Assembly (NCBI GenBank): GCA_029262815.1
Contig: JAJCYS010000038.1
Span: 15,182-79,181, forward strand
Direction: 5' to 3'
Length of the DNA stretch: 64,000 nt
Source: Deltaproteobacteria bacterium
GTDB lineage: Bacteria > Bdellovibrionota > JAJCYS01
Below are positions 10,126 to 62,120 of the stretch, piece after piece. Under the pieces are notes generated by a model. That model was not told the DNA's origin and did not search any database. It saw only the letters and a list, made by a program, of their open reading frames with translations. The first letter of the stretch is position 1; each line of letters starts with the position of its first letter. The position numbers and the translations under genes were made by a program.

Positions 10126-10181
10126 GCCCTACATATCGGGCATAAATATATTTAGTTTAGAATTAATAAATATTTAGTTTT

Positions 10182-10335
10182 CAATAGGTGCCAAAAGGTA
10201 GCCGGGGAACCTAAGAGCTATTCCAAAAGGTAGCCGGGGAACCTAAGAGCTATTCAATAGGTGCCAAAAGGTAGCCGGGGAACCTAAGAGCTATTCAATA
10301 GGTGCCAAAAGGTAGCCGGGGAACCTAAGAGCTAG
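10182..10335. repeat. tandem array of four direct repeats (41, 32, 41, 41 bp), family A, core CCAAAAGGTAGCCGGGGAACCTAAGAGCTA
   Basis: Read directly: units at 10182-10222, 10223-10254 (truncated), 10255-10295, 10296-10335. The last unit abuts the stop codon (10336-10338) of the minus-strand gene. No spacers, so not CRISPR. Confidence 0.9.
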
Positions 10336-12198
10336 TCACTCTTCTTCATGAATTTCCACCCATTGAACTTCTTGAGGTTTCAGAAAACCATGTTTTATCA
10401 ATGCTTCTCTAATAACCTTTTCTACATCAGAGTCCCCATCGTCTCCACCTTCAAACTCTAATCGTTTTTTGAGCAGCTTCGCTTCCTCGTCACTCAACTT
10501 CGCCTTTGCTGCTTTATAGGCATAAGCGGCTATGAACCTCGTTGACCAATTCCTTTTAGTACTCAGCTTCGCTTCGTTCTTAAACTGTGACAACACATTA
10601 TGTGCATCCAGCGCTTCAGCGATGGCTCTCAGTACTTTTGGATCGCGTTCTTCCAATAATTGATTTATGAGGTGCTCTTTCTCTGTATCACCAAATTCTT
10701 TTGATACCCCATAAGCTTGTACTGTCGCTTCACGCAAGTATCTACTCGACGCGGTTAAGAAATCTGCATTTTTTAATTCAGGCATTGCATCATTGTTTTC
10801 AAGTACCTCTTTAATCAATTTAAATACTGTCGAATCGTCTTCAACTTTGAGTTGGTCAAGTAACCACGTTTTTTCATCCGAGGTCAAAGGCGATTTAGTT
10901 TTATATGCCAGCACTGCAGATAGTCGGATTTTCCAGCGGCTTGCGTTCAGAAATTCTTTCGTGCCATATTCTGGCTTTACATTATGCTTCTTAAGCGCTT
11001 GGAGAACAAGATCAATATAAATGTCTTTTTCCTCAGTTTTCAGCCGGTTCAATAAATACTTCTGATCAATTTCCACAAGTGGACTCACCACGTCTTCATA
11101 TGCGTAAATTGCAACAAATCGAATAGCCAGACTCTCTGAATTCAAATGGGTATGCGATTTAAATTCCGATAAAAGATTATGTTTTTTATACAGCTTCACA
11201 TAGGCGGCTACAACGTCAGTGTCTTCATCATATCCCAGAGTATCGTTTTCATCTTCCAGATATTTTTTAAGTAGGTTTTTCTCCTTTTCAGTCGGTTTTT
11301 TTCCCGCCTCATAAGTCTGCAGTGACAACAGTTTTAGATTCCTATTATCAGACCCAAGAAAAATCTTCGATTTCAACTCATCTACTGTGTGATGTTTTTT
11401 TATGGCAACAATAAGCACACCTGTAACATCAGAATCGTCTTCTTCATTCAATTGACTAATTAATTGAGTCTTTTCGTCAGGGGTGAGTGACTCAGCGTTT
11501 TCATACGTATGGGCTGCCGCTTGACGTACTTTCCACCTTTCAGAGCTCAAGTCTTCTTTATTTTTAAACGCAGCTAACGCCTTATGTTTCTTAAGCGTCT
11601 GGATGATAGCATCAGACACATAATCGTCCGATTCAACTTTAAATTGCGCAACAAGCGACACTATTTCTTCTGGCGTCAATGATTCTTTCTTCTCATATGT
11701 TCGAGCCGCAGCAAGTCGAAACGCACTCTTATCTGACTCAAGAGAAACCTGACTCATCATTTCTTTTGGTAACGCATCAAACTTAGCGAGAACTCTCAGA
11801 ATAAGATTCTTGAATCGTTCTTTTTTTTCTTGTTTTAACAAATTGAGGAATGCTTCTTTTTCTTTTGGGGTAATACTTTTGGCTCTCAAGTAACCCCTTG
11901 TCACTTCAAATCGAAGACGTGCATTTTTTGCAGTAAGATATTTGAGCTGATTCAAATTGATTTTGATCCCTTTATCCTTTAGGATACTGAAAACTTTTCT
12001 TATTGACTCTTCGTCAGGCGAACTGATTATCGTGTTTTCCAATCTCAAAATATCTTCGTTTGTTAGTTTACTCTTTTTGGACAGTTGCTCCACGCCTTGA
12101 TTAGATAATGAGGAACCACTCTGTGAGCCACAACCGCTACTAAATACAATCATGAGGGAGAAACAAAGAACTAAACCTATTTTCTTTTTAGACCACAT
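10336..12198 (-). CDS. secreted/lipoprotein with HEAT-like (PBS-lyase type) repeats
   Basis: 620 aa; signal peptide MWSKKKIGLVLCFSLMIVFSSGC; recurring blocks such as RWKVRQAAAHTYENAESLTPDEK...EEDDSDV; paralog of 12380-13267. Confidence 0.6.
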   Translation of the reverse strand: MWSKKKIGLVLCFSLMIVFSSGCGSQSGSSLSNQGVEQLSKKSKLTNEDILRLENTIISSPDEESIRKVFSILKDKGIKINLNQLKYLTAKNARLRFEVTRGYLRAKSITPKEKEAFLNLLKQEKKERFKNLILRVLAKFDALPKEMMSQVSLESDKSAFRLAAARTYEKKESLTPEEIVSLVAQFKVESDDYVSDAIIQTLKKHKALAAFKNKEDLSSERWKVRQAAAHTYENAESLTPDEKTQLISQLNEEDDSDVTGVLIVAIKKHHTVDELKSKIFLGSDNRNLKLLSLQTYEAGKKPTEKEKNLLKKYLEDENDTLGYDEDTDVVAAYVKLYKKHNLLSEFKSHTHLNSESLAIRFVAIYAYEDVVSPLVEIDQKYLLNRLKTEEKDIYIDLVLQALKKHNVKPEYGTKEFLNASRWKIRLSAVLAYKTKSPLTSDEKTWLLDQLKVEDDSTVFKLIKEVLENNDAMPELKNADFLTASSRYLREATVQAYGVSKEFGDTEKEHLINQLLEERDPKVLRAIAEALDAHNVLSQFKNEAKLSTKRNWSTRFIAAYAYKAAKAKLSDEEAKLLKKRLEFEGGDDGDSDVEKVIREALIKHGFLKPQEVQWVEIHEEE

Positions 12199-12292
12199 AT
12201 GTATCCTTTTGTTAACATCTATGCCTTATCGGCACCTACTAACCCATCCTTGATATCAAATGTCGAGTTATTCTACAACCTGAATTTAGTGC

Positions 12293-12341
12293 GGATTCCT
12301 GCCGAGTTTATCCCAGCTGAGGCTGGGGCAGTAATGACAAG
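12293..12341. repeat. family B-like element (GGATTCC...GTAATGACAAG)
   Basis: Resembles the GGATTCCC...GGGAATGACAGG elements at 14177 and 37324; lies directly 5' of a family A copy. Confidence 0.4.
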
Positions 12342-12347
12342 TTTGTA

Positions 12348-12383
12348 TGCCAAAAGGGTGACGGGGAACCTAAGTGTGGCTAG
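12348..12383. repeat. family A repeat, single copy (TGCCAAAAGGGTGACGGGGAACCTAAGTGTGGCTAG)
   Basis: Matches the 10182-10335 units; overlaps the stop codon of CDS 12380-13267. Confidence 0.7.
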
Positions 12384-13267
12384 TTCTGTTCTTCTTCTTC
12401 ATCAGATTCTGGTATCTTGACTCCATGTTTTTCCAACGCTTGACGAATTACATCCTTTACATCAGAAATCCCGTCCACATCTTCATCTTCAAATTTCAAT
12501 TGCTTTAGCAGAAGCGCTTTCTCATCTGGATCTGTTAAGAGTTTATCCGCTGCTTTATATGCATGGGCTGCCGCTCGTCGTATTCTCCAATTTTCAGAAG
12601 CTAAACTGTTTTCGGTTTTAAATTTGGCTAGCGCGTTAAGCTTTACCAGAACCAATAAAATAGTATCGGACACATCTCCGTCCATATCTATTTTATAATG
12701 AGCTATAAGTTTTTCTATCTCTTTCTTAGTAAGCGTTTCTTTCTTTTCGAAATTTTTAGCTGCGGCATATCGGAAGCTACCGTAATCTGACTCAAGAGAT
12801 ACTTGACTCATCATGTCTTTTGGAAACGCATCAAATTTTGCCAGTGTCCTCAGTATTAGGTCTTCAGATATATCATCTTTTTCTTCTTTAAATAATTTGA
12901 GGATAATCTTTTTTTCTTTTAACGTGATACTTTTAGATTCCTTGAAATATACTCTTATCGCCAAATTTCTTACCCTTTCATGTATTGCTTTAAGATACTT
13001 AAGTTGATTCAATTTAATTTTGATACCAGAATCAGTTAATATTTTGAATGCTTTTCCTATTATATTTTCATCAGGCGAACTGACTATCACGTTTTGTAAT
13101 CTTTGAACATCAGCATTTGATAATTCACTCTTTATAGAAATTTGCTTGATTTCTTGAATAGAAGGCAGAGGTAGACTTGAGGCGTCTTTTGTTTTGCTAC
13201 AACCGTAATTGAATATAAATATAAGGGGCAAGCAAAGAACTAAACCCATCTTCTTTTTAAACCTCAT
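12380..13267 (-). CDS. secreted/lipoprotein with HEAT-like repeats (shorter paralog)
   Basis: 295 aa; signal peptide MRFKKKMGLVLCLPLIFIFNYGC; NWRIRRAAAHAYKAADKLLTDPDEK block; 5' leader (CCGATAAGGCATAGATGTTARCAAAAGG) nearly identical to that of 10336-12198. Confidence 0.6.
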   Translation of the reverse strand: MRFKKKMGLVLCLPLIFIFNYGCSKTKDASSLPLPSIQEIKQISIKSELSNADVQRLQNVIVSSPDENIIGKAFKILTDSGIKIKLNQLKYLKAIHERVRNLAIRVYFKESKSITLKEKKIILKLFKEEKDDISEDLILRTLAKFDAFPKDMMSQVSLESDYGSFRYAAAKNFEKKETLTKKEIEKLIAHYKIDMDGDVSDTILLVLVKLNALAKFKTENSLASENWRIRRAAAHAYKAADKLLTDPDEKALLLKQLKFEDEDVDGISDVKDVIRQALEKHGVKIPESDEEEEQN

Positions 13268-13425
13268 ACATACCCTTTTGCTAACATCTATGCCTTATCG
13301 GAATTTAGCAACGAAAAATTAATATCAAAGTCTTTGTCATTCTACAACCTCAATCCCTACCTGAAGCACAACTGGTGGTTTCCCGCACGAATGTTAACGC
13401 CTGCGTTGGGAATAACGGAGCGGGG

Positions 13426-14130: not shown

Positions 14131-14176
14131 TCAGAAATGATATCGAGGCTCATCATATCATTTTTGGTAGTATTTT

Positions 14177-14214
14177 GGATTCCCGCTCACGCTACGCGTG
14201 TCGGGAATGACAGG
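14177..14214. repeat. family B palindromic element GGATTCCCGCTCACGCTACGCGTGTCGGGAATGACAGG
   Basis: Inverted repeat ATTCCCG...CGGGAAT flanking a 16-nt spacer; related copies at 37324-37381, 29431-29474 (reverse) and a fragment at 53052-53066. Confidence 0.7.
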
Positions 14215-14237
14215 ATGAATTTAATGTCTTAGATATC

Positions 14238-28896: not shown

Positions 28897-29422
28897 AGAT
28901 ATGAGTCGATTTAAATCGAAACGTCGCGCTCGAGCCCAAACGCCGCAGCTTCAAATCACATCACTCCTTGATATTATGACGGTACTGCTTTTCTTTTTGC
29001 TCAAAAGCTTTGGCACCACACCTGAATTGAACATTTCAAAAAATCTTGAATTACCTAAAAGTGTCAGCACACGACCTGCGGTTTATGCGTTGAATATCGC
29101 CGTTTCAAAAAACGAGATCTCAGTTGATGGAGAGTCGATTATCGCATTGCAAGGCATCAGCAAGGAGACAAAACGTTTGCCTCAAGCTGTATTTCGGAGA
29201 GATCCTGATTTGATTGCTCCGCTCTTTGAACTCTTGGCCAAAAAGAGAAGTTACGCCGCTAAACTTGCAAAACGCGATCCGCTTATAAAATTCAAAGGCG
29301 ACTGTATCATTCAAGCTGACCAAGACACGCCATTTCACATTATTAAAAAGGTGCTCTATACGGCTGGTCAGGCTGGGTATTTGATGCTCAATGTCGCGAC
29401 CTTGTCGACAAAAGATATTTAA
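28880..29422 (+). CDS. ExbD/TolR-family protein (second copy)
   Basis: ITSLLDIMTVLLFFLL TM block; likely start at MSRFKS (28901). Confidence 0.6.
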   Translation: MRQVVRDMSRFKSKRRARAQTPQLQITSLLDIMTVLLFFLLKSFGTTPELNISKNLELPKSVSTRPAVYALNIAVSKNEISVDGESIIALQGISKETKRLPQAVFRRDPDLIAPLFELLAKKRSYAAKLAKRDPLIKFKGDCIIQADQDTPFHIIKKVLYTAGQAGYLMLNVATLSTKDI

Positions 29423-29430
29423 GTAAAGTT

Positions 29431-29474
29431 GGATCCCCGCTCCTTCTTCGTCATCCCTGCCTTCGCAGGGATCC
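29431..29474. repeat. family B-type palindromic element (reverse orientation)
   Basis: GGATCCCCGC...ATCCCTGCCTTCGCAGGGATCC; hairpin ATCCCTG / CAGGGAT with CCTTCG loop. Confidence 0.6.
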
Positions 29475-29486
29475 ATTTCGACTTAC

Positions 29487-29537
29487 TGCCAAAAGGGTGC
29501 CGGGGAACCTTAGTGCTTTGGGGAACCTAAGTGCTTT
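29487..29537. repeat. family A repeat, 1.5 units (TGCCAAAAGGGTGCCGGGGAACCTTAGTGCTTTGGGGAACCTAAGTGCTTT)
   Basis: Same GGGGAACCTAAG core as the 10182-10335 array; here upstream of the plus-strand CDS 29605-31929. Confidence 0.7.
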
Positions 29538-29604
29538 CCCACCTACTTCCAAACAGCAATTCCTGATATACTACTCACAAGAAATTAGATTCGAGGGGGA
29601 AAGA

Positions 29605-37250: not shown

Positions 37251-37323
37251 GGTTAGACCATTAAAGTACTTGCTTCAAAAAAATTAATCGCGAATTAAAT
37301 CTTTATGTATAGAACAAGTTTTT

Positions 37324-37381
37324 GGATTCCCCTCGCAGACGCTCGCGACGGGGATGATAAAAAAAGACAGGAATGACAAGG
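37324..37381. repeat. family B palindromic element GGATTCCCCTCGCAGACGCTCGCGACGGGGATGATAAAAAAAGACAGGAATGACAAGG
   Basis: Shares GGATTCCC and GGAATGACA termini with 14177-14214. Confidence 0.6.
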
Positions 37382-47844: not shown

Positions 47845-47927
47845 AGTACAACCTAATTTGAACAAACCCAGTTTTGTGTCACATATGTGGGTTTCGTCAA
47901 TTTTTATTAATTTAAGAGGAGGAAACT

Positions 47928-48431
47928 ATGAATTTAAAAGTTTTATCAGTCGCGTTGGTCGCAAGTTTTTTGGTTGTTACAGCGTGCAGCAGCAGCAAAT
48001 CACCTAAGGGCAAAAGTGATGCCGCAAGTGTTTCTATGTCAATTTCAGCAAAAAACAATAAATTCGAATTGAATGTTGATAAATTTAAGATTGAAGCTTT
48101 GAAGGAAGTCAAAAATACAGATGCTATGAAAGCGCTTAAAGATCTAAACGGTAGCTTCTCTATCGCACGTAAGGCAGAGAATGACATCACAAGTGGCAAA
48201 TGGGTTCATACGGATGGTGACAAAGTACATTCAATTGCATTCACCAACGAAAACAATGTCTGGACATTCGCTAATGAAATCACTGGCGTCAAAGCGGACC
48301 ATGCGATGGCTATCTGGGCAAAACAAAAATCTACCATTACAGCTACAAAAGATGGCGGATTCACCATGTCTTTGACTTTGGCTGACAAAGACACTAAAAA
48401 CGTAACCGTTTCTGTACCGTTTAAGAAGTAA
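47928..48431 (+). CDS. lipoprotein, unknown function
   Basis: RBS AGAGGAGGAAACT before ATG; MNLKVLSVALVASFLVVTACSSS lipobox. Confidence 0.6.
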   Translation: MNLKVLSVALVASFLVVTACSSSKSPKGKSDAASVSMSISAKNNKFELNVDKFKIEALKEVKNTDAMKALKDLNGSFSIARKAENDITSGKWVHTDGDKVHSIAFTNENNVWTFANEITGVKADHAMAIWAKQKSTITATKDGGFTMSLTLADKDTKNVTVSVPFKK

Positions 48432-48462
48432 GTACTAACCTACCCAACTGTAGGTCAAAAAA

Positions 48463-48497
48463 ACCTGGCGTCATTTAATTGGCGTCAGGTTTTTTTA
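48463..48497 (+). terminator. intrinsic terminator (stem with G-U wobbles, T7 tract)
   Basis: ACCTGGCGTCA ... TGGCGTCAGGT followed by TTTTTTT; A-tract upstream. Confidence 0.5.
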
Positions 48498-48605
48498 TTT
48501 GCTCCTCCACAGTGTTCTTTATTGACCTACGGCCTCCACCCTGCTTGGTTTAAATATGGTATTATGGTACTGTGGGAGCTGATTTTAGAGCCGGAGGGTA
48601 GTCAT

Positions 48606-49238
48606 ATGCGTCGGGGAATTCTTTTTTTTACACTTATAGCTGCATGTTTTGCAGGATGCAAATCGGATGTTGAAAAACGCCAAAAGTTGGATGAGTTCAT
48701 GCTCTCCATCACATCAAAAGCTTATATCTTCAAAGGACTGACTGTAACCAAGACTGTTAAGTCAAAAGAAGTGAGAACAGATGGCAAAACCTGGCTGGCA
48801 TATTTTACAGACAAGGTCTTTCCGAACGTTCCAGATGATGTGGAAAGAGATCTTAGGCTGATACTTGATAACAAAGACAAATTCGTAGGATCAGAGTTCA
48901 AACTAGGTGCCGCTGCGTGGCGATATACTCGAAACTCAGAAAAATTCCCTCTCGAAAAAAATGGCATGATTGAGTGGAAACGTGCTGATGGGGGGAGCTT
49001 ATTTAGACCTGATTATTTACAAAACGAAACATATTTTTCATTTTTTGGCCCTTTCGGTACAGGGACAGTTGCCAAAGACGCTGAGTTAGAGGACTACGAA
49101 AAGCCTCTTATTCGTTTTTTTCAAAAAAAGAAACTAGAAGTCACTGCTGAGGACAACAAGCAAGAAAAACTCAAGCTTAATTATTACATAGAAGGCATTG
49201 TTGCTTTCTCTCTCAGCTTTGAGCAAAAGAAAGAGTAA
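48606..49238 (+). CDS. lipoprotein, unknown function
   Basis: Start at ATG 48606 (MRRGILFFTLIAACFAGC) with GGAGGG upstream; the ORF-track start at 48522 is an extension. Confidence 0.6.
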   Translation: MRRGILFFTLIAACFAGCKSDVEKRQKLDEFMLSITSKAYIFKGLTVTKTVKSKEVRTDGKTWLAYFTDKVFPNVPDDVERDLRLILDNKDKFVGSEFKLGAAAWRYTRNSEKFPLEKNGMIEWKRADGGSLFRPDYLQNETYFSFFGPFGTGTVAKDAELEDYEKPLIRFFQKKKLEVTAEDNKQEKLKLNYYIEGIVAFSLSFEQKKE

Positions 49239-49265
49239 ACCATCATCAGAAGAGGAGGACATCTC

Positions 49266-50132
49266 ATGAGATATAGCCGATTTTATTGCCTTCTGGCATG
49301 TTGCATGGTGCTTACAAGCTGCACACGTAACAACACCGAACCGACTGCGAAGTTCTTATCTGTCCTATTTACCTCACATGCGGCACTGCTAAATGCAACC
49401 AAAACGCCAAGCGCTGAGAATGATAAAAATTTAAAATTTTTTAGAATGACACATGGTCGATATTTTGGGAATGAGATGGAAACATTCGCAAAATTTGATG
49501 CTATCTACAAAGGGGAACTTTATTGGCTGTTCAGTCAGGGACCTGATCGTGAAACATACATTTGGATGGTGTACAAACTGCCTGAAGGCATGCCCTCAAC
49601 TCTACAGACAAAAAAAGATGAAAAAGATAAGAAGAAGGATGAAAAAGATAAGGAAAAAGAGGTTGATCCCAAAAAACCACTTGTCGGCTGCTCGCAATTT
49701 ATGATGTCGATTGAAACGACATACGAAGGCGGATTGGCCTATGCCTATGATACTGAGTTGCCCACTATTAGCATGGGGCCTTGGATACAAATGGATTATT
49801 CCGGGGAAAAGCTGGCTATCAAAAAGTTAAGCACAAAATACATTAATTCGTTCTTTACGCTTATCCAGCATGAGAGTGGAAGCATCAAAGCACGTTGGCA
49901 GAGTGACAGCTCTATAGCAAGAATCAAAATATCCCGCGTTAGACCCGTAGAGCCCTATGCCTATGTTGATTTAGTTCCAGCTGAACCAACTGCATACATT
50001 AAGGATGCGCTAAGGAAGAATGTTAGATACACGTTTTTGAAACACACGATAAAAAAATCAATTAAAAAGAAAGATGAGAAGGAAGACACTGAAAAAGATA
50101 AAAAAGACAACAAGGAAACCAAAGAGGATTAG
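49266..50132 (+). CDS. lipoprotein with Lys/Asp/Glu low-complexity segments
   Basis: MRYSRFYCLLACCMVLTSC lipobox; KKDEKDKKKDEKDKEKE internal and KKKDEKEDTEKDKKDNKETKED C-terminal tracts. Confidence 0.6.
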   Translation: MRYSRFYCLLACCMVLTSCTRNNTEPTAKFLSVLFTSHAALLNATKTPSAENDKNLKFFRMTHGRYFGNEMETFAKFDAIYKGELYWLFSQGPDRETYIWMVYKLPEGMPSTLQTKKDEKDKKKDEKDKEKEVDPKKPLVGCSQFMMSIETTYEGGLAYAYDTELPTISMGPWIQMDYSGEKLAIKKLSTKYINSFFTLIQHESGSIKARWQSDSSIARIKISRVRPVEPYAYVDLVPAEPTAYIKDALRKNVRYTFLKHTIKKSIKKKDEKEDTEKDKKDNKETKED

Positions 50133-50135
50133 ACC

Positions 50136-50702
50136 ATGAAATTTCTGATCACTGCCTGTGTGTACAGCATCTTCATCTTTGGAAGTATCGGCTGTAAATC
50201 CAAAAATCCTGCGGATTTAAAACGAACAATCGAAAGTGGGCGTCAATTCTATGAATTGGTGGGCGTCAGCAGTCTTGATTCTGGGTATAAAGATTTACGC
50301 AAAGAAGTCAGTTTCTGGCACTTTGGCCCTAAACGGTTGACAATTCTTTTGAACAAAGCGACACAAGAAGCCACAAAACCAGCAACAGTTGAACGACCTG
50401 ATGGGCTTTTTTATGGGCCGCTCAGTGCATTCAAAAAAATCAAGACTTCTGATCGATTGCTAGCGGGGTCAGACAGATTGAAGGGCAGAACATTAAGACT
50501 CAAAGAGTGGCCCCAGCAAATGAAGGCTTTTATCATGCGTCAGCAAGCAGATGGTAGCCTAAAAAAAGACGTTGAGCTGACATTCAAAAAAGTGGATTTA
50601 CCGAGTGCGAAATTTTCTGTGATTTGGCCGGATCATCTGAAGGCTCCGGAGCCTTTGAAGCCCAAAGAACAAAAGCTGCAACCCATCTCCTCCAAAAAGT
50701 AG
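50136..50702 (+). CDS. lipoprotein, unknown function
   Basis: MKFLITACVYSIFIFGSIGC lipobox; 188 aa. Confidence 0.6.
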   Translation: MKFLITACVYSIFIFGSIGCKSKNPADLKRTIESGRQFYELVGVSSLDSGYKDLRKEVSFWHFGPKRLTILLNKATQEATKPATVERPDGLFYGPLSAFKKIKTSDRLLAGSDRLKGRTLRLKEWPQQMKAFIMRQQADGSLKKDVELTFKKVDLPSAKFSVIWPDHLKAPEPLKPKEQKLQPISSKK

Positions 50703-50731
50703 ACGGATCGCAGCTTTTTGAGTTCAAACTA

Positions 50732-52078
50732 TTATTTTTTCCTCCAATCTTTCCATTTGTTTTTCCAATAGTCTTTGGTCTGCTCCAGCGCACCTTTTTC
50801 TTGTTCTTTAACTTTTGGTTTTAACCCATACTGACGATTAACCTCATTTAAAGTTTTGTTATATTCTGCATTTAACTCATTGATCTCCAGCTGAAAATCC
50901 TGCTTATCTTCAAGAGTAAGGGCGGGTTTCACGTCTTTCTTTTGTCTCTGATTAAATTCGTTCACTTTTTCAAGATATGCTTTTTGTTGTTTTTTACTCT
51001 TTTCTTCAAGTTTAGCAAACGCTTCATCACCTATGTACTTATCACTTTGACTGCTACTTTTGTCATCTTCTTCGGCACTCTTCTCTTGCGAGTTACCATC
51101 CTGTGATTTGCTAGAGTCGTCTTGTTGTTTAGTTTCGCCCTCTTGGGAATTGCCATCATCATTTGATTGGTTGTCGTCTTCTTTAGTTTCTTCAGATTTA
51201 CTATCATCAACTTGTTTTACAGTCTTTTGAACAGGCCCTTTAACAATCGGCTTCCCTTTGCTTAGCAGCTGACCTTTTTTATTAATGGTTACGTCATTTA
51301 TATCCACCGCTTGAAATCCAACTTCCATCGTAAACTGCACGGTTACCGTGCTCGCTTCAGTTACTTTTGCAGCTGCTCGAATAAACCCTTCATTTTTAGT
51401 TGGTGTAAATATAAGTTCAGGCACACGGGGACAAATCTGAGTAAATGAGCATTTCAATGTTACATCTAAATTTTCTTCGTAAGGTTTCCGAACGATGAGC
51501 TCCTCTTTCGCATTTTCCATATCCAAGTGAGTCGGCAATGGACGAATCGGTCCACTCCAAATCAACCCATTAATGGTATCGCCATTTTTGATCTCATATG
51601 GTGAGACCCAAGGATTTTTTGCATCTCGTTTTTCTGCAATAAAATCAACAAACGTACCTTTCTCTTGCTCAGTATCCCAATAAAACATCCGTATTTTGAA
51701 AGCCCCTAGTCCTTCTTTAGGAAAAAAGTACACAAATTTACCGTTCAATGTCGTCTCAGGCTTGCCCTTATACTGGAATGGTTCTCCTAGGAATGACTTA
51801 ACACCCTTATCGACCGCTGCCTGTGCCCTCGTTTTAATAAACGCATAATGATCACTAACCACAGTCCCTTTTAGCTCCTCAGGTAGAGGTACAAACCATT
51901 TATCTGTGTTCTTTTGAGTTAATTCCTCTTTGGTGACCTTTACAACATCTTCTTTCTTCAGCACCTGCATCAGCTTTTTATTAAACTCTTCTTCCTTGAG
52001 AGGAACGCCGCAGCCAACAAACACCAAAATACATACAATTGCAATAAAAAATTCTTGTTTTTTCATATATTTCAACAT
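50732..52078 (-). CDS. lipoprotein with acidic low-complexity linker, unknown function
   Basis: Start at 52078 (MLKYMKKQEFFIAIVCILVFVGC) preceded by AAAGAGGTG; acidic Ser/Asp/Gln-rich linker then Lys-rich coiled-coil-like tail. Confidence 0.6.
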   Translation of the reverse strand: MLKYMKKQEFFIAIVCILVFVGCGVPLKEEEFNKKLMQVLKKEDVVKVTKEELTQKNTDKWFVPLPEELKGTVVSDHYAFIKTRAQAAVDKGVKSFLGEPFQYKGKPETTLNGKFVYFFPKEGLGAFKIRMFYWDTEQEKGTFVDFIAEKRDAKNPWVSPYEIKNGDTINGLIWSGPIRPLPTHLDMENAKEELIVRKPYEENLDVTLKCSFTQICPRVPELIFTPTKNEGFIRAAAKVTEASTVTVQFTMEVGFQAVDINDVTINKKGQLLSKGKPIVKGPVQKTVKQVDDSKSEETKEDDNQSNDDGNSQEGETKQQDDSSKSQDGNSQEKSAEEDDKSSSQSDKYIGDEAFAKLEEKSKKQQKAYLEKVNEFNQRQKKDVKPALTLEDKQDFQLEINELNAEYNKTLNEVNRQYGLKPKVKEQEKGALEQTKDYWKNKWKDWRKK

Positions 52079-52294
52079 GTTACACCTCTTTAGGTTGCGA
52101 AAACTTCTTTTCAGTTGACCATAAAAAATAAGTTTAAGCAATTTAAAAAACACTAATCGTTTTATCGGTTATTTAGCTAATAGTTTTAACAGTTTATGCA
52201 TCTATTTAATATTTAATGAATTTATATACTTACACTAAATATTTTATTTATAAATGTCGATCAGACGGTGAGGTTTCATGAAGGAGGGGGGAAG

Positions 52295-53023
52295 ATGAGC
52301 TATTTCAACAACCGTTTGGTGGTGTGTGCGTTTTTGGGCGCGGGGCTGCTGATATTGCCTGCCCAAAGCAATGCGTTCCAACCTAATGACGCTGGCCTTG
52401 CAACACCCGACAACTTTGATCAGATGCCGATTCAGTACCACAACGGCTCACAAGCAAGCCCCTATGACGCTCCTCAAGGTTATGACATGCCCCAACGAGA
52501 TCTCCCTGCAGCTCCTGAGATTCCGCGACAGCCCGCTCAATTCCCGACTGCGCCTAACTTGAACGCCCCCCAAGATATTCAACAGGGCTATGATGCTCCG
52601 CCGCAGTACAACAGCTACCCACAGAATCAAAACCCGTACCCTGATGTTCAACGAGATCCCAACAGTGATTATATGGATAAACAGCCCCCCCCTAATATGC
52701 AACAAGGATATGACTCACTGCCTCAAAGTAACAGCTACCCTCAAACTCAAAACCCCTATCCAGATGTTCAACGAGACCCTGAATCACTCAATGATTCTGA
52801 TCCGTTTGATCAAAATCAATATGACCAAAACCCTCAAGATTATCCTTCTGAATTCATTGATTCAGGAGAACCAGACGCAAATCTACCTCAGGCGGATCGA
52901 CTACCTCTGCAAACACCTTTTGAGCCCCCACAGATTGATGATTTCTCACCTGAGCAAGAGTTACAAAATCCACAACCCTATCCTGAATTTGACCAACAAC
53001 AGCTGGATGACATTCGACAGTAA
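52295..53023 (+). CDS. secreted Pro/Gln/Tyr/Asp-rich repeat protein
   Basis: Start at ATG 52295 after GAAGGAGGGGGG; signal peptide ...LPAQSNA; internal direct repeat QQGYDxxPQxNSYPQxQNPYPDVQRDP occurs twice. Confidence 0.6.
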   Translation: MSYFNNRLVVCAFLGAGLLILPAQSNAFQPNDAGLATPDNFDQMPIQYHNGSQASPYDAPQGYDMPQRDLPAAPEIPRQPAQFPTAPNLNAPQDIQQGYDAPPQYNSYPQNQNPYPDVQRDPNSDYMDKQPPPNMQQGYDSLPQSNSYPQTQNPYPDVQRDPESLNDSDPFDQNQYDQNPQDYPSEFIDSGEPDANLPQADRLPLQTPFEPPQIDDFSPEQELQNPQPYPEFDQQQLDDIRQ

Positions 53024-53179
53024 GATAGATTGCTTCGGATAGTACGCCTGCGACGACAGATGGATCCCTGCCTCCGTGTATAGTCCCGAAAGATTGCAAG
53101 TATAGAAAGGAAGTGATAAGAGGGATAGAGTACAGCAACGGCCTGACACCGCCATCTCTACCAAAATATCGAATCGTCT

Positions 53180-59567: not shown

Positions 59568-59603
59568 AAAAAAAAATCCAAGGGATAAACCCTCGGATTT
59601 TTT
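59568..59603 (-). terminator. intrinsic terminator of the 5S rRNA gene
   Basis: On minus-strand RNA: AUCCGAGGG-UUUAU-CCCUUGGAU (9-bp stem with one G-U) followed by U9. Confidence 0.65.
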
Positions 59604-59607
59604 TAAA

Positions 59608-59721
59608 GTTGCGCTGTACTACTCTCCCACAGGGCTACCCCTGCAGTACCATCGTCGCTGAGGAGCTTAACTGCCGAGTTCGGAATGGGATCGGGTGTTT
59701 CCTCCTTGCTATCAGGACAAC
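59608..59721 (-). rRNA. rrf: 5S ribosomal RNA (solitary)
   Basis: Minus-strand sequence ...CCGAUCCCAUUCCGAACUCGGCAGUUAAGCUCCUCAGCGACGAUGGUACUGCAGGGGUAGCCCUGUGGGAGAGUAGUACAGCGCAAC aligns block-for-block with bacterial 5S (CCGAACUC, GUUAAGC, CGAUGGUACUG, GGGAGAGUAG). Ends are +/-5 nt. Confidence 0.85.
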
Positions 59722-59726
59722 GAAAT

Positions 59727-59756
59727 CAAGGTATCAAGCGACCCCTCTCAAGTCAA
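59727..59756 (-). promoter_or_regulatory. candidate sigma70-type promoter for the 5S gene (TTGACT -35, weak TACCTT -10)
   Basis: On minus strand: AAAAGCTTGACTTGAGAGGGGTCGCTTGATACCTTGATTTCG then the 5S 5' end; spacing and -10 are imperfect. Confidence 0.3.
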
Positions 59757-59834
59757 GCTTTTGTTTGTTATACTAGGGTTGCACGATTAACACGTTCTCT
59801 ATCTGGCACGTGCGTGTTTCGAACGGGATGTTCT

Positions 59835-62120
59835 ATGACTGAAAAAGCCCAACGATGGGTATTTATCTTGTTTCTACTTATCGGGTCCTTATGGGTGGGT
59901 CCCCGGTGGATTCCCGCAGAGTGGCTCAAAGAAACCCTCGAGTCCTGGGTCACCACACATATGGGATTTACCCTCCAAACGGACAGTGTGGCTCTGTCGT
60001 TATTTCCGACCACCCAGCTCGTATGCAAAGACGTCACATTTTCTGGCGCCCCCCTTCCGTTCTCGCTCCAGACTACTGGCACCATCTCGCGGATGATACT
60101 GAAGTTTTCTATGATTAAAACGGCTTTGACCGGCCGACCCTTTGTCAACGTCCTGCTTGACGGTGCTCAGCTTGAAATTACGCCACATGAGCCACCCAAA
60201 GACCCCCTTCCCTACGTTGTCTTATCTTCACTCTTTATTAGGTCGAGTGACGCAGTCCTAACCCTAAAAAAAAACCGTATCCCCACAACCCTACATTCAT
60301 TTCAAATTGTTTTTGAGCCTAAGCGTAAAACGGCAACCTTACAAGGTGATATAACCCTACCCGAGTTTGCGCCAAAACCTGGATCACGTTTATCCACACA
60401 GATGACTTTGAACGGTTCAGTTGAGGCCCTCGAAGACGGCTCTCTATACATCCCACAGCTCAGGTTCCGAGCCAAAAATTTTAGCTACGTTTCTCTCGCC
60501 TACCAAATCAAACAAGGTCGAGGCCCTTTCTTTATGACCGCTTCGGGACTCTCTCTCTCTCGAGAAGGGTCTGGCACGGTAAAATCCCTTTTTCTCGGAC
60601 TCAATGACCACACCTTACAACTCACTGGACAATTTCAGACAACGCCTTTTCGTTTTATCGGACGGCTAGCCCCTTTTGAAACAACATTCAAAGACTTCCC
60701 TTTCGAATTGCTTCAAGATACGTTCCCAGGTGCTTCGGGAATAATCACCTTAAACAACCCGATAGGGCTGTCCTACACACACAGTCCCAAATCCGAATTG
60801 CAAATGGATCTTAAGGGGATCGCATTAAAAAATCTGTCTTGGCCCACACCTTGGTTCCTGCTTGAAGAGCCCGAGGCACGCCTATCTGGAAAACTATTTT
60901 TTCATCCCAAAGCAGGAATTCAACCATCGCGAATTGAATGGCGTAACGGTAAACTTGAGCTTGCACACAGTACATTGCTTATGGAAATCTCTACAGAGCC
61001 TGATGTAAACCGCACAGAAATTACACTTCAGCCTTTTGAACTTGATCTTTCACAAATTCCTCAGATCTTTGAAACGTTTCTTGGGTTCAAACACACGAGC
61101 GGCTTACTCACCAGTGCCACACCGTTGACCATTTCTAAAACAGAAAATACAACCGCGTTAGCAGGTCGATTACGAATCGATGAGGGCATAGGCACATGGC
61201 AAAAACAATGGCAGGTAGCAGGACTCACAGCTGATATGGTATTGGGGACACCAAAATCAGATCTCACTTTATCCATAAACAGCCTGACTCAAAAAAATGG
61301 GTGGCAACTCAAAAACCTTACTTTGCAAGGCAACCTGGCTCAAACAGGCGTATGGGAACTCAATCGATTCGCCACACAATTTAAAGACGGTACAGTTGTT
61401 CTAAAGGGCGGTGTGTTTGATCCAATTGCACATACGTTTACAGCAAAGTCTTTAAAAGGTTTTTTTGATCTTACAAAGTCTCGCGTACTCAATCATGTTG
61501 CTCCAAAAGCAAATTTAAGTTTAACGGGCAATCTTCGTTTTCAGATTAACCGCATGGGCATCCCGCTCACCCCGACGACACATCAGCCCAAATGGCATAA
61601 AATGGTCGGAGCATTTGAAAGTGAAATTGCGAATTTTTCCTGGCGTGACTTTGATATGCAAACCCCTTTTACAGAGCTGCTCGAATCATATTATGATCAG
61701 CTGCGAACTCGACGGGTTCGATCGCGTACCCTCGCAACTGAAACCATTCCCACATTAGAAACAACGTACAAAGGTACCATGAAGGGACAATTTTCCTCTC
61801 AGAATGTGATTGTCTCAGAGAGTACATTTTTCAATGCCACTAGTACATTCACCTTAAAAGGGAAAACAACAAAACTACCCGTGCCCCTTCAAAAAACACG
61901 TATAGATTTAAATGGCACGTACATCATCCACAAACCGGGATTTGCGGACCCTGTTATTCAAGAAATTCTACTAGATCCGAATCGGAACCTTCGCATTCCT
62001 GTTCAAATCCAAGGCACCCTTGGTAGACCTGATGCCTATTTTTTAAAAGCTGAAGCGTACCGAACTTTTGATCGACGTATTCAATCGCACCACATAGCCA
62101 AACCAACTAAGGGGCAATAA
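59835..62120 (+). CDS. AsmA-family protein (membrane-anchored, beta-rich envelope protein)
   Basis: Start at ATG 59835 (MTEKAQRWVFILFLLIGSLWV, single N-terminal TM); about 760 aa, repetitive beta-strand-like composition. The ORF-track start at 59685 overlaps the 5S gene. Confidence 0.6.
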   Translation: MTEKAQRWVFILFLLIGSLWVGPRWIPAEWLKETLESWVTTHMGFTLQTDSVALSLFPTTQLVCKDVTFSGAPLPFSLQTTGTISRMILKFSMIKTALTGRPFVNVLLDGAQLEITPHEPPKDPLPYVVLSSLFIRSSDAVLTLKKNRIPTTLHSFQIVFEPKRKTATLQGDITLPEFAPKPGSRLSTQMTLNGSVEALEDGSLYIPQLRFRAKNFSYVSLAYQIKQGRGPFFMTASGLSLSREGSGTVKSLFLGLNDHTLQLTGQFQTTPFRFIGRLAPFETTFKDFPFELLQDTFPGASGIITLNNPIGLSYTHSPKSELQMDLKGIALKNLSWPTPWFLLEEPEARLSGKLFFHPKAGIQPSRIEWRNGKLELAHSTLLMEISTEPDVNRTEITLQPFELDLSQIPQIFETFLGFKHTSGLLTSATPLTISKTENTTALAGRLRIDEGIGTWQKQWQVAGLTADMVLGTPKSDLTLSINSLTQKNGWQLKNLTLQGNLAQTGVWELNRFATQFKDGTVVLKGGVFDPIAHTFTAKSLKGFFDLTKSRVLNHVAPKANLSLTGNLRFQINRMGIPLTPTTHQPKWHKMVGAFESEIANFSWRDFDMQTPFTELLESYYDQLRTRRVRSRTLATETIPTLETTYKGTMKGQFSSQNVIVSESTFFNATSTFTLKGKTTKLPVPLQKTRIDLNGTYIIHKPGFADPVIQEILLDPNRNLRIPVQIQGTLGRPDAYFLKAEAYRTFDRRIQSHHIAKPTKGQ

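Follow-up and report, generated by a model that had tools for sequence, protein, structure and literature searches.

The short intergenic palindromes found in the 64-kb stretch of DNA analysed here (the window) are probably members of a pan-bacterial family of oriented, NTS-like hairpins, the Ssn-related motifs (SRM), with an Ssn nuclease predicted elsewhere in the genome; we put this reading at roughly two chances in three. The resemblance to the family was seen in sequence, orientation, hairpin formation and location. The family has been known since 2025 and is widespread, and what this assignment adds is a new instance with unusually long cores, from a little-known lineage.

Chenal et al. 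(Nat Commun 2025; PMC11893778) describe a 28-nt Neisseria Transformation Sequence (NTS), CGTCATTCCCGCGMAVGCGGGAATCYRG, which contains dRS3 (ATTCCC-N8-GGGAAT) and for which the consensus CGTCATTCCCGCG-MAV-GCGGGAATCYRG is quoted. Ssn-related motifs are defined there as NTS-like, hairpin-forming inverted repeats of 20-50 nt occurring in many phyla, and they flank ssnA, a 94-aa single-domain GIY-YIG gene (cd10448). According to the same text, SsnA binds the hairpin as single-stranded DNA only, in one orientation only, and cuts a few nt upstream; cutting depends most on the three bases before the palindrome, and binding most on the C right after it. Altering the stem sequence while keeping the hairpin abolished N. 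meningitidis SsnA activity. In N. meningitidis, the repeat/nuclease pair reduces integration of repeat-bearing transforming DNA, and in strain 8013 just 2% of NTS fall within genes (PMC11893778). The possibility is also raised by those authors that repeat and nuclease together form a domesticated selfish pair that spreads hairpins.

A first-pass annotation of the window, made from the letters alone, had proposed six copies of a palindromic element, and on direct reading the sequences of all six are present where they were placed. Four are supported by our analysis (Table 1), the copy at 12293 being the more diverged, whilst those at 13376-13412 and 53052-53066 fell away; we accepted the four and rejected the two because of their pattern tests and fold scores. 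Conserved termini, a variable GC-rich palindromic core and an intergenic position, as originally described, are correct for all four supported copies.

Table 1. Supported hairpin copies in the window, named by their first position, and one associated half-arm.
Feature	Positions	Strand	Description
Copy 14177	14177-14214	-	Best copy; minus strand reads cTGTCATTCCCG-ACACGCGTAGCGTGAG-CGGGAATCCAAAA
Copy 29450	29450-29474	+	Short copy; cGTCAT-CCCTGC-cttc-GCAGGG-ATCCAT
Extra half-arm	29431-29440	+	GGATCCCCGC, complementary to the 3' arm of copy 29450
Copy 37324	37324-37381	-	Composite; 5' half-site TTGTCATTCCTG, then T7, then inner hairpin ATCATCCCCGTCGC-gagcgtct-GCGAGGGGAATCCAAAAA
Copy 12293	12293-12338	-	Diverged; minus strand reads TTGTCATTACTGCC-CCAGCctcaGCTGGgataaact-CGGCAGGAATCCgc

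When read on the strand opposite to that first presented, the elements take the form (C/T)GTCAT(T)CCCG, variable core, CGGG(A)ATCC, and the reverse complement of the originally proposed GGATTCCC...GGGAATGACA is exactly the NTS/SRM motif. Both termini are near-perfect in two copies, 14177 and 37324. Copy 14177, initially given as TTGGATTCCCGCTCACGCTACGCGTGTCGGGAATGACAGG, reads TGTCATTCCCG...CGGGAATCCAA on its oriented strand, where its GTCATTCCCG and CGGGAATCC are identical to the NTS consensus termini as quoted in PMC11893778. Its outer stem of 7 bp (ATTCCCG/CGGGAAT) surrounds a second stem of 5 bp, the palindrome being abutted by GTC at its 5' end and by C at its 3' end, and the copy lies 23 nt past the trkH stop codon and 46 nt ahead of the start of a DUF4336 gene. 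Copy 29450, which in the initial orientation reads GGATCCCTGC-GAAG-GCAGGGATGAC and stands on the opposite strand to 14177 and 37324, has a 7-bp stem and a 4-nt loop; it is a variant without one T/A pair of the arm, located 27 nt past the exbD stop codon. The neighbouring half-arm creates an alternative, long-range inverted repeat in which 29420-29440 pairs with 29465-29485. Copy 37324 was first given as TTGGATTCCCCTCGC...GCGACGGGGATGAT, an A-run and then AGGAATGACAAGG, and lies 5 nt past the stop codon of a ftsB/DivIC-like gene. Copy 12293 has an outer stem of 9 bp with one mismatch and lies 41 nt past the stop codon of the HEAT-repeat lipoprotein gene at 12380-13267; here too the 5' GTC and the 3' C are retained, such that GTC directly before the palindrome and C directly after it are found in 4/4 supported copies.

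Within the window, the strict pattern GGATTCCC-N10-40-GGGAAT occurs once where 0 occurrences are expected, and a looser pattern of two termini gives three matches (14177, 29450 on the minus strand, and 37324) where 0.03 are expected. A combined flank and pairing test, defined as GTC, a hairpin beginning with AT and finishing with AT, and then CC, recovers all four copies against an expectation of 0.17-0.34; for the class to which 12293 belongs in this test (arm of 9 with 1 mismatch), one match was observed against 0.05 expected. Neither terminus is enriched in the window when taken alone: for GGATTCCC with up to 1 mismatch, 33 occurrences compare with an expectation of 47.9, and for GGAATGACA 22 compare with 19.2. 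The signal is the pairing of two termini with a hairpin between them, and not single 8-9-mers.

Folding as single-stranded DNA gave a clear hairpin for copy 14177 (-12.1 kcal/mol, z = -4.7) and weaker ones for 12293 (z = -2.6), 29450 (z = -2.3) and 37324 (z = -1.6). Nothing comparable was obtained at the two remaining sites: 13376-13412 has a fold z of -0.4, and was missed by the structure test as well as by the covariance model described below at E <= 10, whilst 53052-53066, originally listed as a fragment, has a fold z of +1.2 and matched in no test. Rfam returned no match at the hairpin elements.

All four copies are intergenic, although the intergenic share of the window is only 7.2% (p ~ 3e-5), and all four are located 5-41 nt downstream of a stop codon. 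In each case GTCAT stands on the strand that is sense for the flanking genes, a co-orientation that reaches only p ~ 0.1. Copy density is modest, at four in 64 kb. The window itself has a G+C content of about 44% and is packed with housekeeping genes, including trkA/trkH, nusB, glyA, rpiB, a fab/acp/plsX cluster, murC/murB, two exbB/exbD sets, lnt and ftsB, as well as rodA, PBP2, mreC, a SurA-like gene, lon, fadB/fadA, a Ser/Thr kinase and several proteases. Within these 64 kb, nothing was found that encodes a transposase, an integrase, a RAYT or a GIY-YIG protein. Further along the window, a 5S rRNA gene at 59606-59722 (-) scores 95.7 bits and stands alone, neither 23S nor 16S rRNA being present in the 64 kb. 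An inverted repeat resembling a terminator comes after it at 59570-59604, and the 5' end of the rRNA gene is overlapped on the other strand by a maximal ORF of 811 aa (59685-62120) with no Pfam match. A block of ORFs at 47900-52200, likewise with no Pfam match, has a G+C content of about 0.40, compared to 0.44-0.46 elsewhere, and the gene beside it carries a Q/P-rich internal repeat of 94 nt (52566-52779), the two copies of which are 77% identical.

Two other features adjoin the hairpins. The tandem HEAT-repeat lipoprotein paralogues at 10336-13267 (-) encode proteins that are 52% identical, and their upstream leaders are also similar; DNA similarity between them ends at about 12285 and 13354, just before copy 12293 and the unsupported look-alike at 13377, so that no more than about 10-25 nt separate either of them from the edge of the duplication. 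We considered whether 12293 and 13377 could represent one copy carried by this tandem duplication and rejected the idea: the similarity stops just before both, the two do not align with each other, and 13377 fails all tests. A second repeat, Family A, has the form CCAAAAGG(T/G)(A/T)G(C/A)CGGGGAACCT(A/T)AG and is found at 10180-10337, 12339-12382 and 29478-29541. The first of these sites comprises four tandem units with a 41/32-nt period, and single or double units directly adjoin hairpin copies 12293 and 29450. Family A displays no fold signal and has no Rfam match, and a metagenome scan with its core gave one match, a chance one inside an ABC-transporter signature motif.

To place the hairpins among other genomes, we scanned public genomes, one per species and 596 Gb in total, with the pattern GGATTCCC-N10-40-GGGAATGAC, which matched at least 120 loci. 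By our own arithmetic, a few thousand matches to this pattern are expected by chance in 596 Gb; despite this, the matches are judged clearly not to be due to chance, because they share bases that the pattern left free and carry compensatory changes in the stem. Nearly all of the matches listed read (c/a)tGGATTCCCGC-loop-GCGGGAATGAC(a/g), including bases not demanded by the pattern, and unforced flanks among them include CCAG, and C or T before GTCAT. In an alignment of 55 foreign copies, the two stem pairs that the pattern left free were paired at 99.3%, with 34 double changes compared to 8.9 in shuffles. The groups represented among the matches listed are Nitrospirota, Omnitrophota, Bradyrhizobium, Dehalococcoidia, Patescibacteria, Bacteroidota, Ignavibacteria, Neisseria and others. 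Viral and prophage contigs (IMG/VR, L124-L243; at least 120 loci) are rich in the motif as well, with 7-12 copies in some of them (L142 and L147, for instance).

We then used a covariance model (R1) built solely from foreign copies, with none from the window. R1 recovered copy 14177 at 14169-14219 (-) with 30.8 bits (E = 7.5e-7) and copy 29450 at 29442-29482 (+) with 16.0 bits (E = 0.022). Copy 37324 scored 10.7 bits at 37316-37379 (-) (E = 0.9), which is within noise, the best unrelated match in the window reaching 10.8 bits, and copy 12293 was not found at E <= 10 (below 7.5 bits). For reference, the copies of a Neisseria lactamica cluster score 17-37 bits, and those flanking Ssn-like genes 14-40 bits; the score of copy 14177 falls inside both ranges. 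From these comparisons copy 14177 can be placed firmly in the family and copy 29450 is a likely member. Copy 37324, with a partial match to the termini and a score within the noise of R1, is a weak match, and copy 12293, placed by the flank-plus-stem test alone and also matching the termini in part, is a plausible but not secure member.

The composite layout of copy 37324 is found elsewhere. In about 20 of the foreign matches listed, from several phyla, an extra 5' half-site, GTCATTCCCGC, stands 10-20 nt upstream of a complete hairpin (L010, L028, L043, L103, L104, L082, L018, L035, L089 and others), as it does at 37324-37381. This arrangement is not mentioned in the available portion of PMC11893778; it could be a footprint of repeat multiplication.

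The published degenerate search string for SRMs, HGTCWY N0-2 YYVSBRH N0-5 WNVSBRG N0-2 RNCYNB (PMC11893778), has 0 matches in the window, and none of our copies passes it, the string having no room for cores as long as theirs. To match, they need 1-3 substitutions, a wider central gap or both, and with the string so relaxed chance matches are equally frequent. Only 49/137 foreign copies pass the string, and a long-core copy that lies beside an Ssn-like gene (L105) also fails it. The string is thus an operational search device and not a definition of the family, and surveys based on it would undercount the family, missing long-core copies of which one stands beside an Ssn-like gene.

By tblastn, we identified five Ssn-like genes of about 88 aa among the 240 motif-bearing loci listed. 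Three of the proteins were run against Pfam, and all are single-domain GIY-YIG proteins (PF01541, E = 7e-17 to 2e-13). Each of the five genes lies within 41 nt of a motif copy, and 3/5 have an SRM-gene-SRM arrangement; among the IMG/VR contigs, L126 and L186 carry an Ssn-like gene adjoining a copy. In the 64-kb window, a profile of the five Ssn-like proteins searched in all reading frames detected no such gene (best E = 0.86), and Pfam identified no GIY-YIG gene among the 57 window ORFs.

By analogy with the published system, the strand reading GTCAT(T)CCCG...CGGG(A)ATCC would form a hairpin when it becomes single-stranded, at the replication fork or during DNA uptake or repair. A small single-domain GIY-YIG Ssn nuclease (cd10448), expected elsewhere in the genome, would bind this hairpin with the C just 3' of the stem as its key contact, and would make its cut in the single strand a few nt to the 5' side of GTC. 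The outcome would be either that recombination of incoming or repaired DNA is shaped by the pair, or that the pair is a domesticated selfish system. Binding and cutting by Ssn, and any effect on recombination, are thus extrapolated to this organism from the literature. The diverged copies may not be Ssn substrates, because a stem change that kept the hairpin abolished N. meningitidis SsnA activity in the experiments cited above. The first-pass suggestion that the elements could be binding sites or recombination hotspots survives in this form: they are probably binding sites for a protein, and their Neisseria relatives modulate recombination of incoming DNA (PMC11893778), a role that may carry over here.

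Several other explanations have to be weighed against membership of a working repeat/nuclease pair. The hairpins might derive from SRMs and persist as orphans in a genome that lost, or never had, a matching Ssn, as decaying passengers with no DNA-level function. The lack of an ssn gene in the window and the heterogeneity of the copies (30.8, 16.0, 10.7 and below 7.5 bits in R1) fit such decay, as does the lack of any hairpin copy in 14.5 kb of a relative (L122) whose TrkH is 60% identical and which has a different gene next to trkH; the closest relatives are only 60-68% identical, and include 'Deltaproteobacteria bacterium' MAGs at about 60%. PMC11893778 reports SsnA in 81% of genomes with more than 200 SRMs, so some repeat-bearing genomes are without it. 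Against this, copy 14177 is essentially intact at all conserved positions, GTC and the 3' C are retained in 4/4 copies, and 64 kb is too small for an ssn gene to be called absent; we regard decaying orphans as rather unlikely. We find quite unlikely, too, a long-stem variant of the Ssn hairpin in this deep-branching lineage, either co-opted behind stop codons, on the sense strand and with no nuclease, as an RNA-level stabiliser or processing site of the 3' end, or matched to a divergent Ssn tolerant of far larger cores; if the latter were true, it would imply a new cleavage specificity.

A role in RNA was also implied by the first-pass proposal that the elements could be terminators. In E. coli, some REP elements work at the transcript level, where they terminate transcription, stabilise 3' ends or serve as processing sites, and hairpins in the 3'-UTR could here do any of these things for the upstream gene. 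The hairpins are stable, 4/4 copies follow a stop codon at a distance of 5-41 nt, and 4/4 have their oriented strand in the sense direction of the flanking genes, but that co-orientation is, as noted, weak in statistical terms. No T/U tract follows any copy, the tails being CCAAAATAC, CCAAAAACT, CCATTTCGA and CCGCACTAA, and a terminator scan called none at the copies, which removes the proposal of intrinsic terminators. A purely structural role in RNA would moreover leave unexplained the single-stranded flanks, GTC and C, that recur across phyla. We therefore consider an RNA-level explanation very unlikely on its own, although it is compatible with an SRM origin as a side effect. The original suggestion was of REP/BIME elements that owe their mobility to a RAYT, or of MITEs with an origin in insertion sequences; either would account for palindromes that are short and extragenic, with ends conserved and cores variable, in a mosaic-like neighbourhood with Family A repeats. 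The description as REP-like extragenic hairpin repeats holds, but the partner does not: the ends match a family whose associated gene encodes a GIY-YIG nuclease and not a REP-associated tyrosine transposase, no RAYT (Y1 transposase), IS200/IS605 or other transposase was found among the 57 window ORFs scanned, and the 5' foot of the hairpin is GTC(A), not a GTAG-type tetranucleotide. As for MITEs, the flanks of the four copies were read directly for target-site duplications and no direct duplications were visible; sequence shared on each side of the copies (TTTTGG... / ...GACA(A)GG) is part of the motif itself. Mobilisation of either kind thus seems highly improbable. Finally, a site-specific recombinase (an IS110/Piv-type transposase or a filamentous phage integrase, for example) could use the elements as attachment or target sites. 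The dRS3 core in Neisseria is the target of a specific phage recombinase (PMC11893778), and the motif is abundant in viral and prophage contigs, but the window contains no IS, integrase or prophage gene, the genes neighbouring the copies are all housekeeping, and such use would be a secondary exploitation that does not explain the origin of the repeat; we give this possibility scarcely any credence.

Assignment to the SRM family would give these otherwise unexplained intergenic palindromes a place in a repeat family whose partner is biochemically characterised. It predicts that another part of the genome holds a GIY-YIG gene of about 90 aa with the same hairpins on its flanks. If the cognate nuclease tolerates cores of 16 nt or longer, it would add a new specificity to the set of Ssn proteins proposed as tools for single-stranded DNA.

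Compared to known systems, the hairpins are closest in form to NTS and the SRMs (PMC11893778). The window copies share with them the oriented termini, the single-stranded DNA hairpin and the GTC 5' and C 3' of it; they fall within the 20-50 nt of SRMs, except for the 58-nt composite 37324, are strictly intergenic with several per region, and have foreign counterparts with the same ends that flank GIY-YIG genes of about 88 aa. They differ in that 16 nt separate the arms in the best window copy, as opposed to 3-5 nt in NTS, in that no window copy matches the search string, and in the low copy number and lack of an ssn gene in the window. The inverted core ATTCCC...GGGAAT of a window copy resembles that of dRS3, and the position beside other short repeats, with Family A adjoining two copies, resembles that of NIME and recalls the intergenic mosaics of Neisseria. 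dRS3, however, has exactly 8 nt between its arms, whereas the only hairpin-forming ATTCCC...GGGAAT pair in the window has 18, and Neisseria carries hundreds of copies around genes for surface proteins, where here single copies stand behind housekeeping genes. With Rho-independent terminators the elements have in common a GC-rich hairpin soon after the stop codon on the sense strand, but not the T/U tract. They differ from REP/BIME elements and their RAYT in their conserved termini, which are common to several phyla while REP sequences are species-specific, and in the implied fold of the partner, GIY-YIG and not HUH/Y1 (IS200/IS605-type). They nevertheless resemble them as extragenic palindromes downstream of genes, and in both the REP/RAYT and Ssn systems the repeats flank the gene of a small nuclease-like protein that recognises them as single-stranded DNA hairpins, an analogy also drawn by the authors of the Ssn work (PMC11893778).
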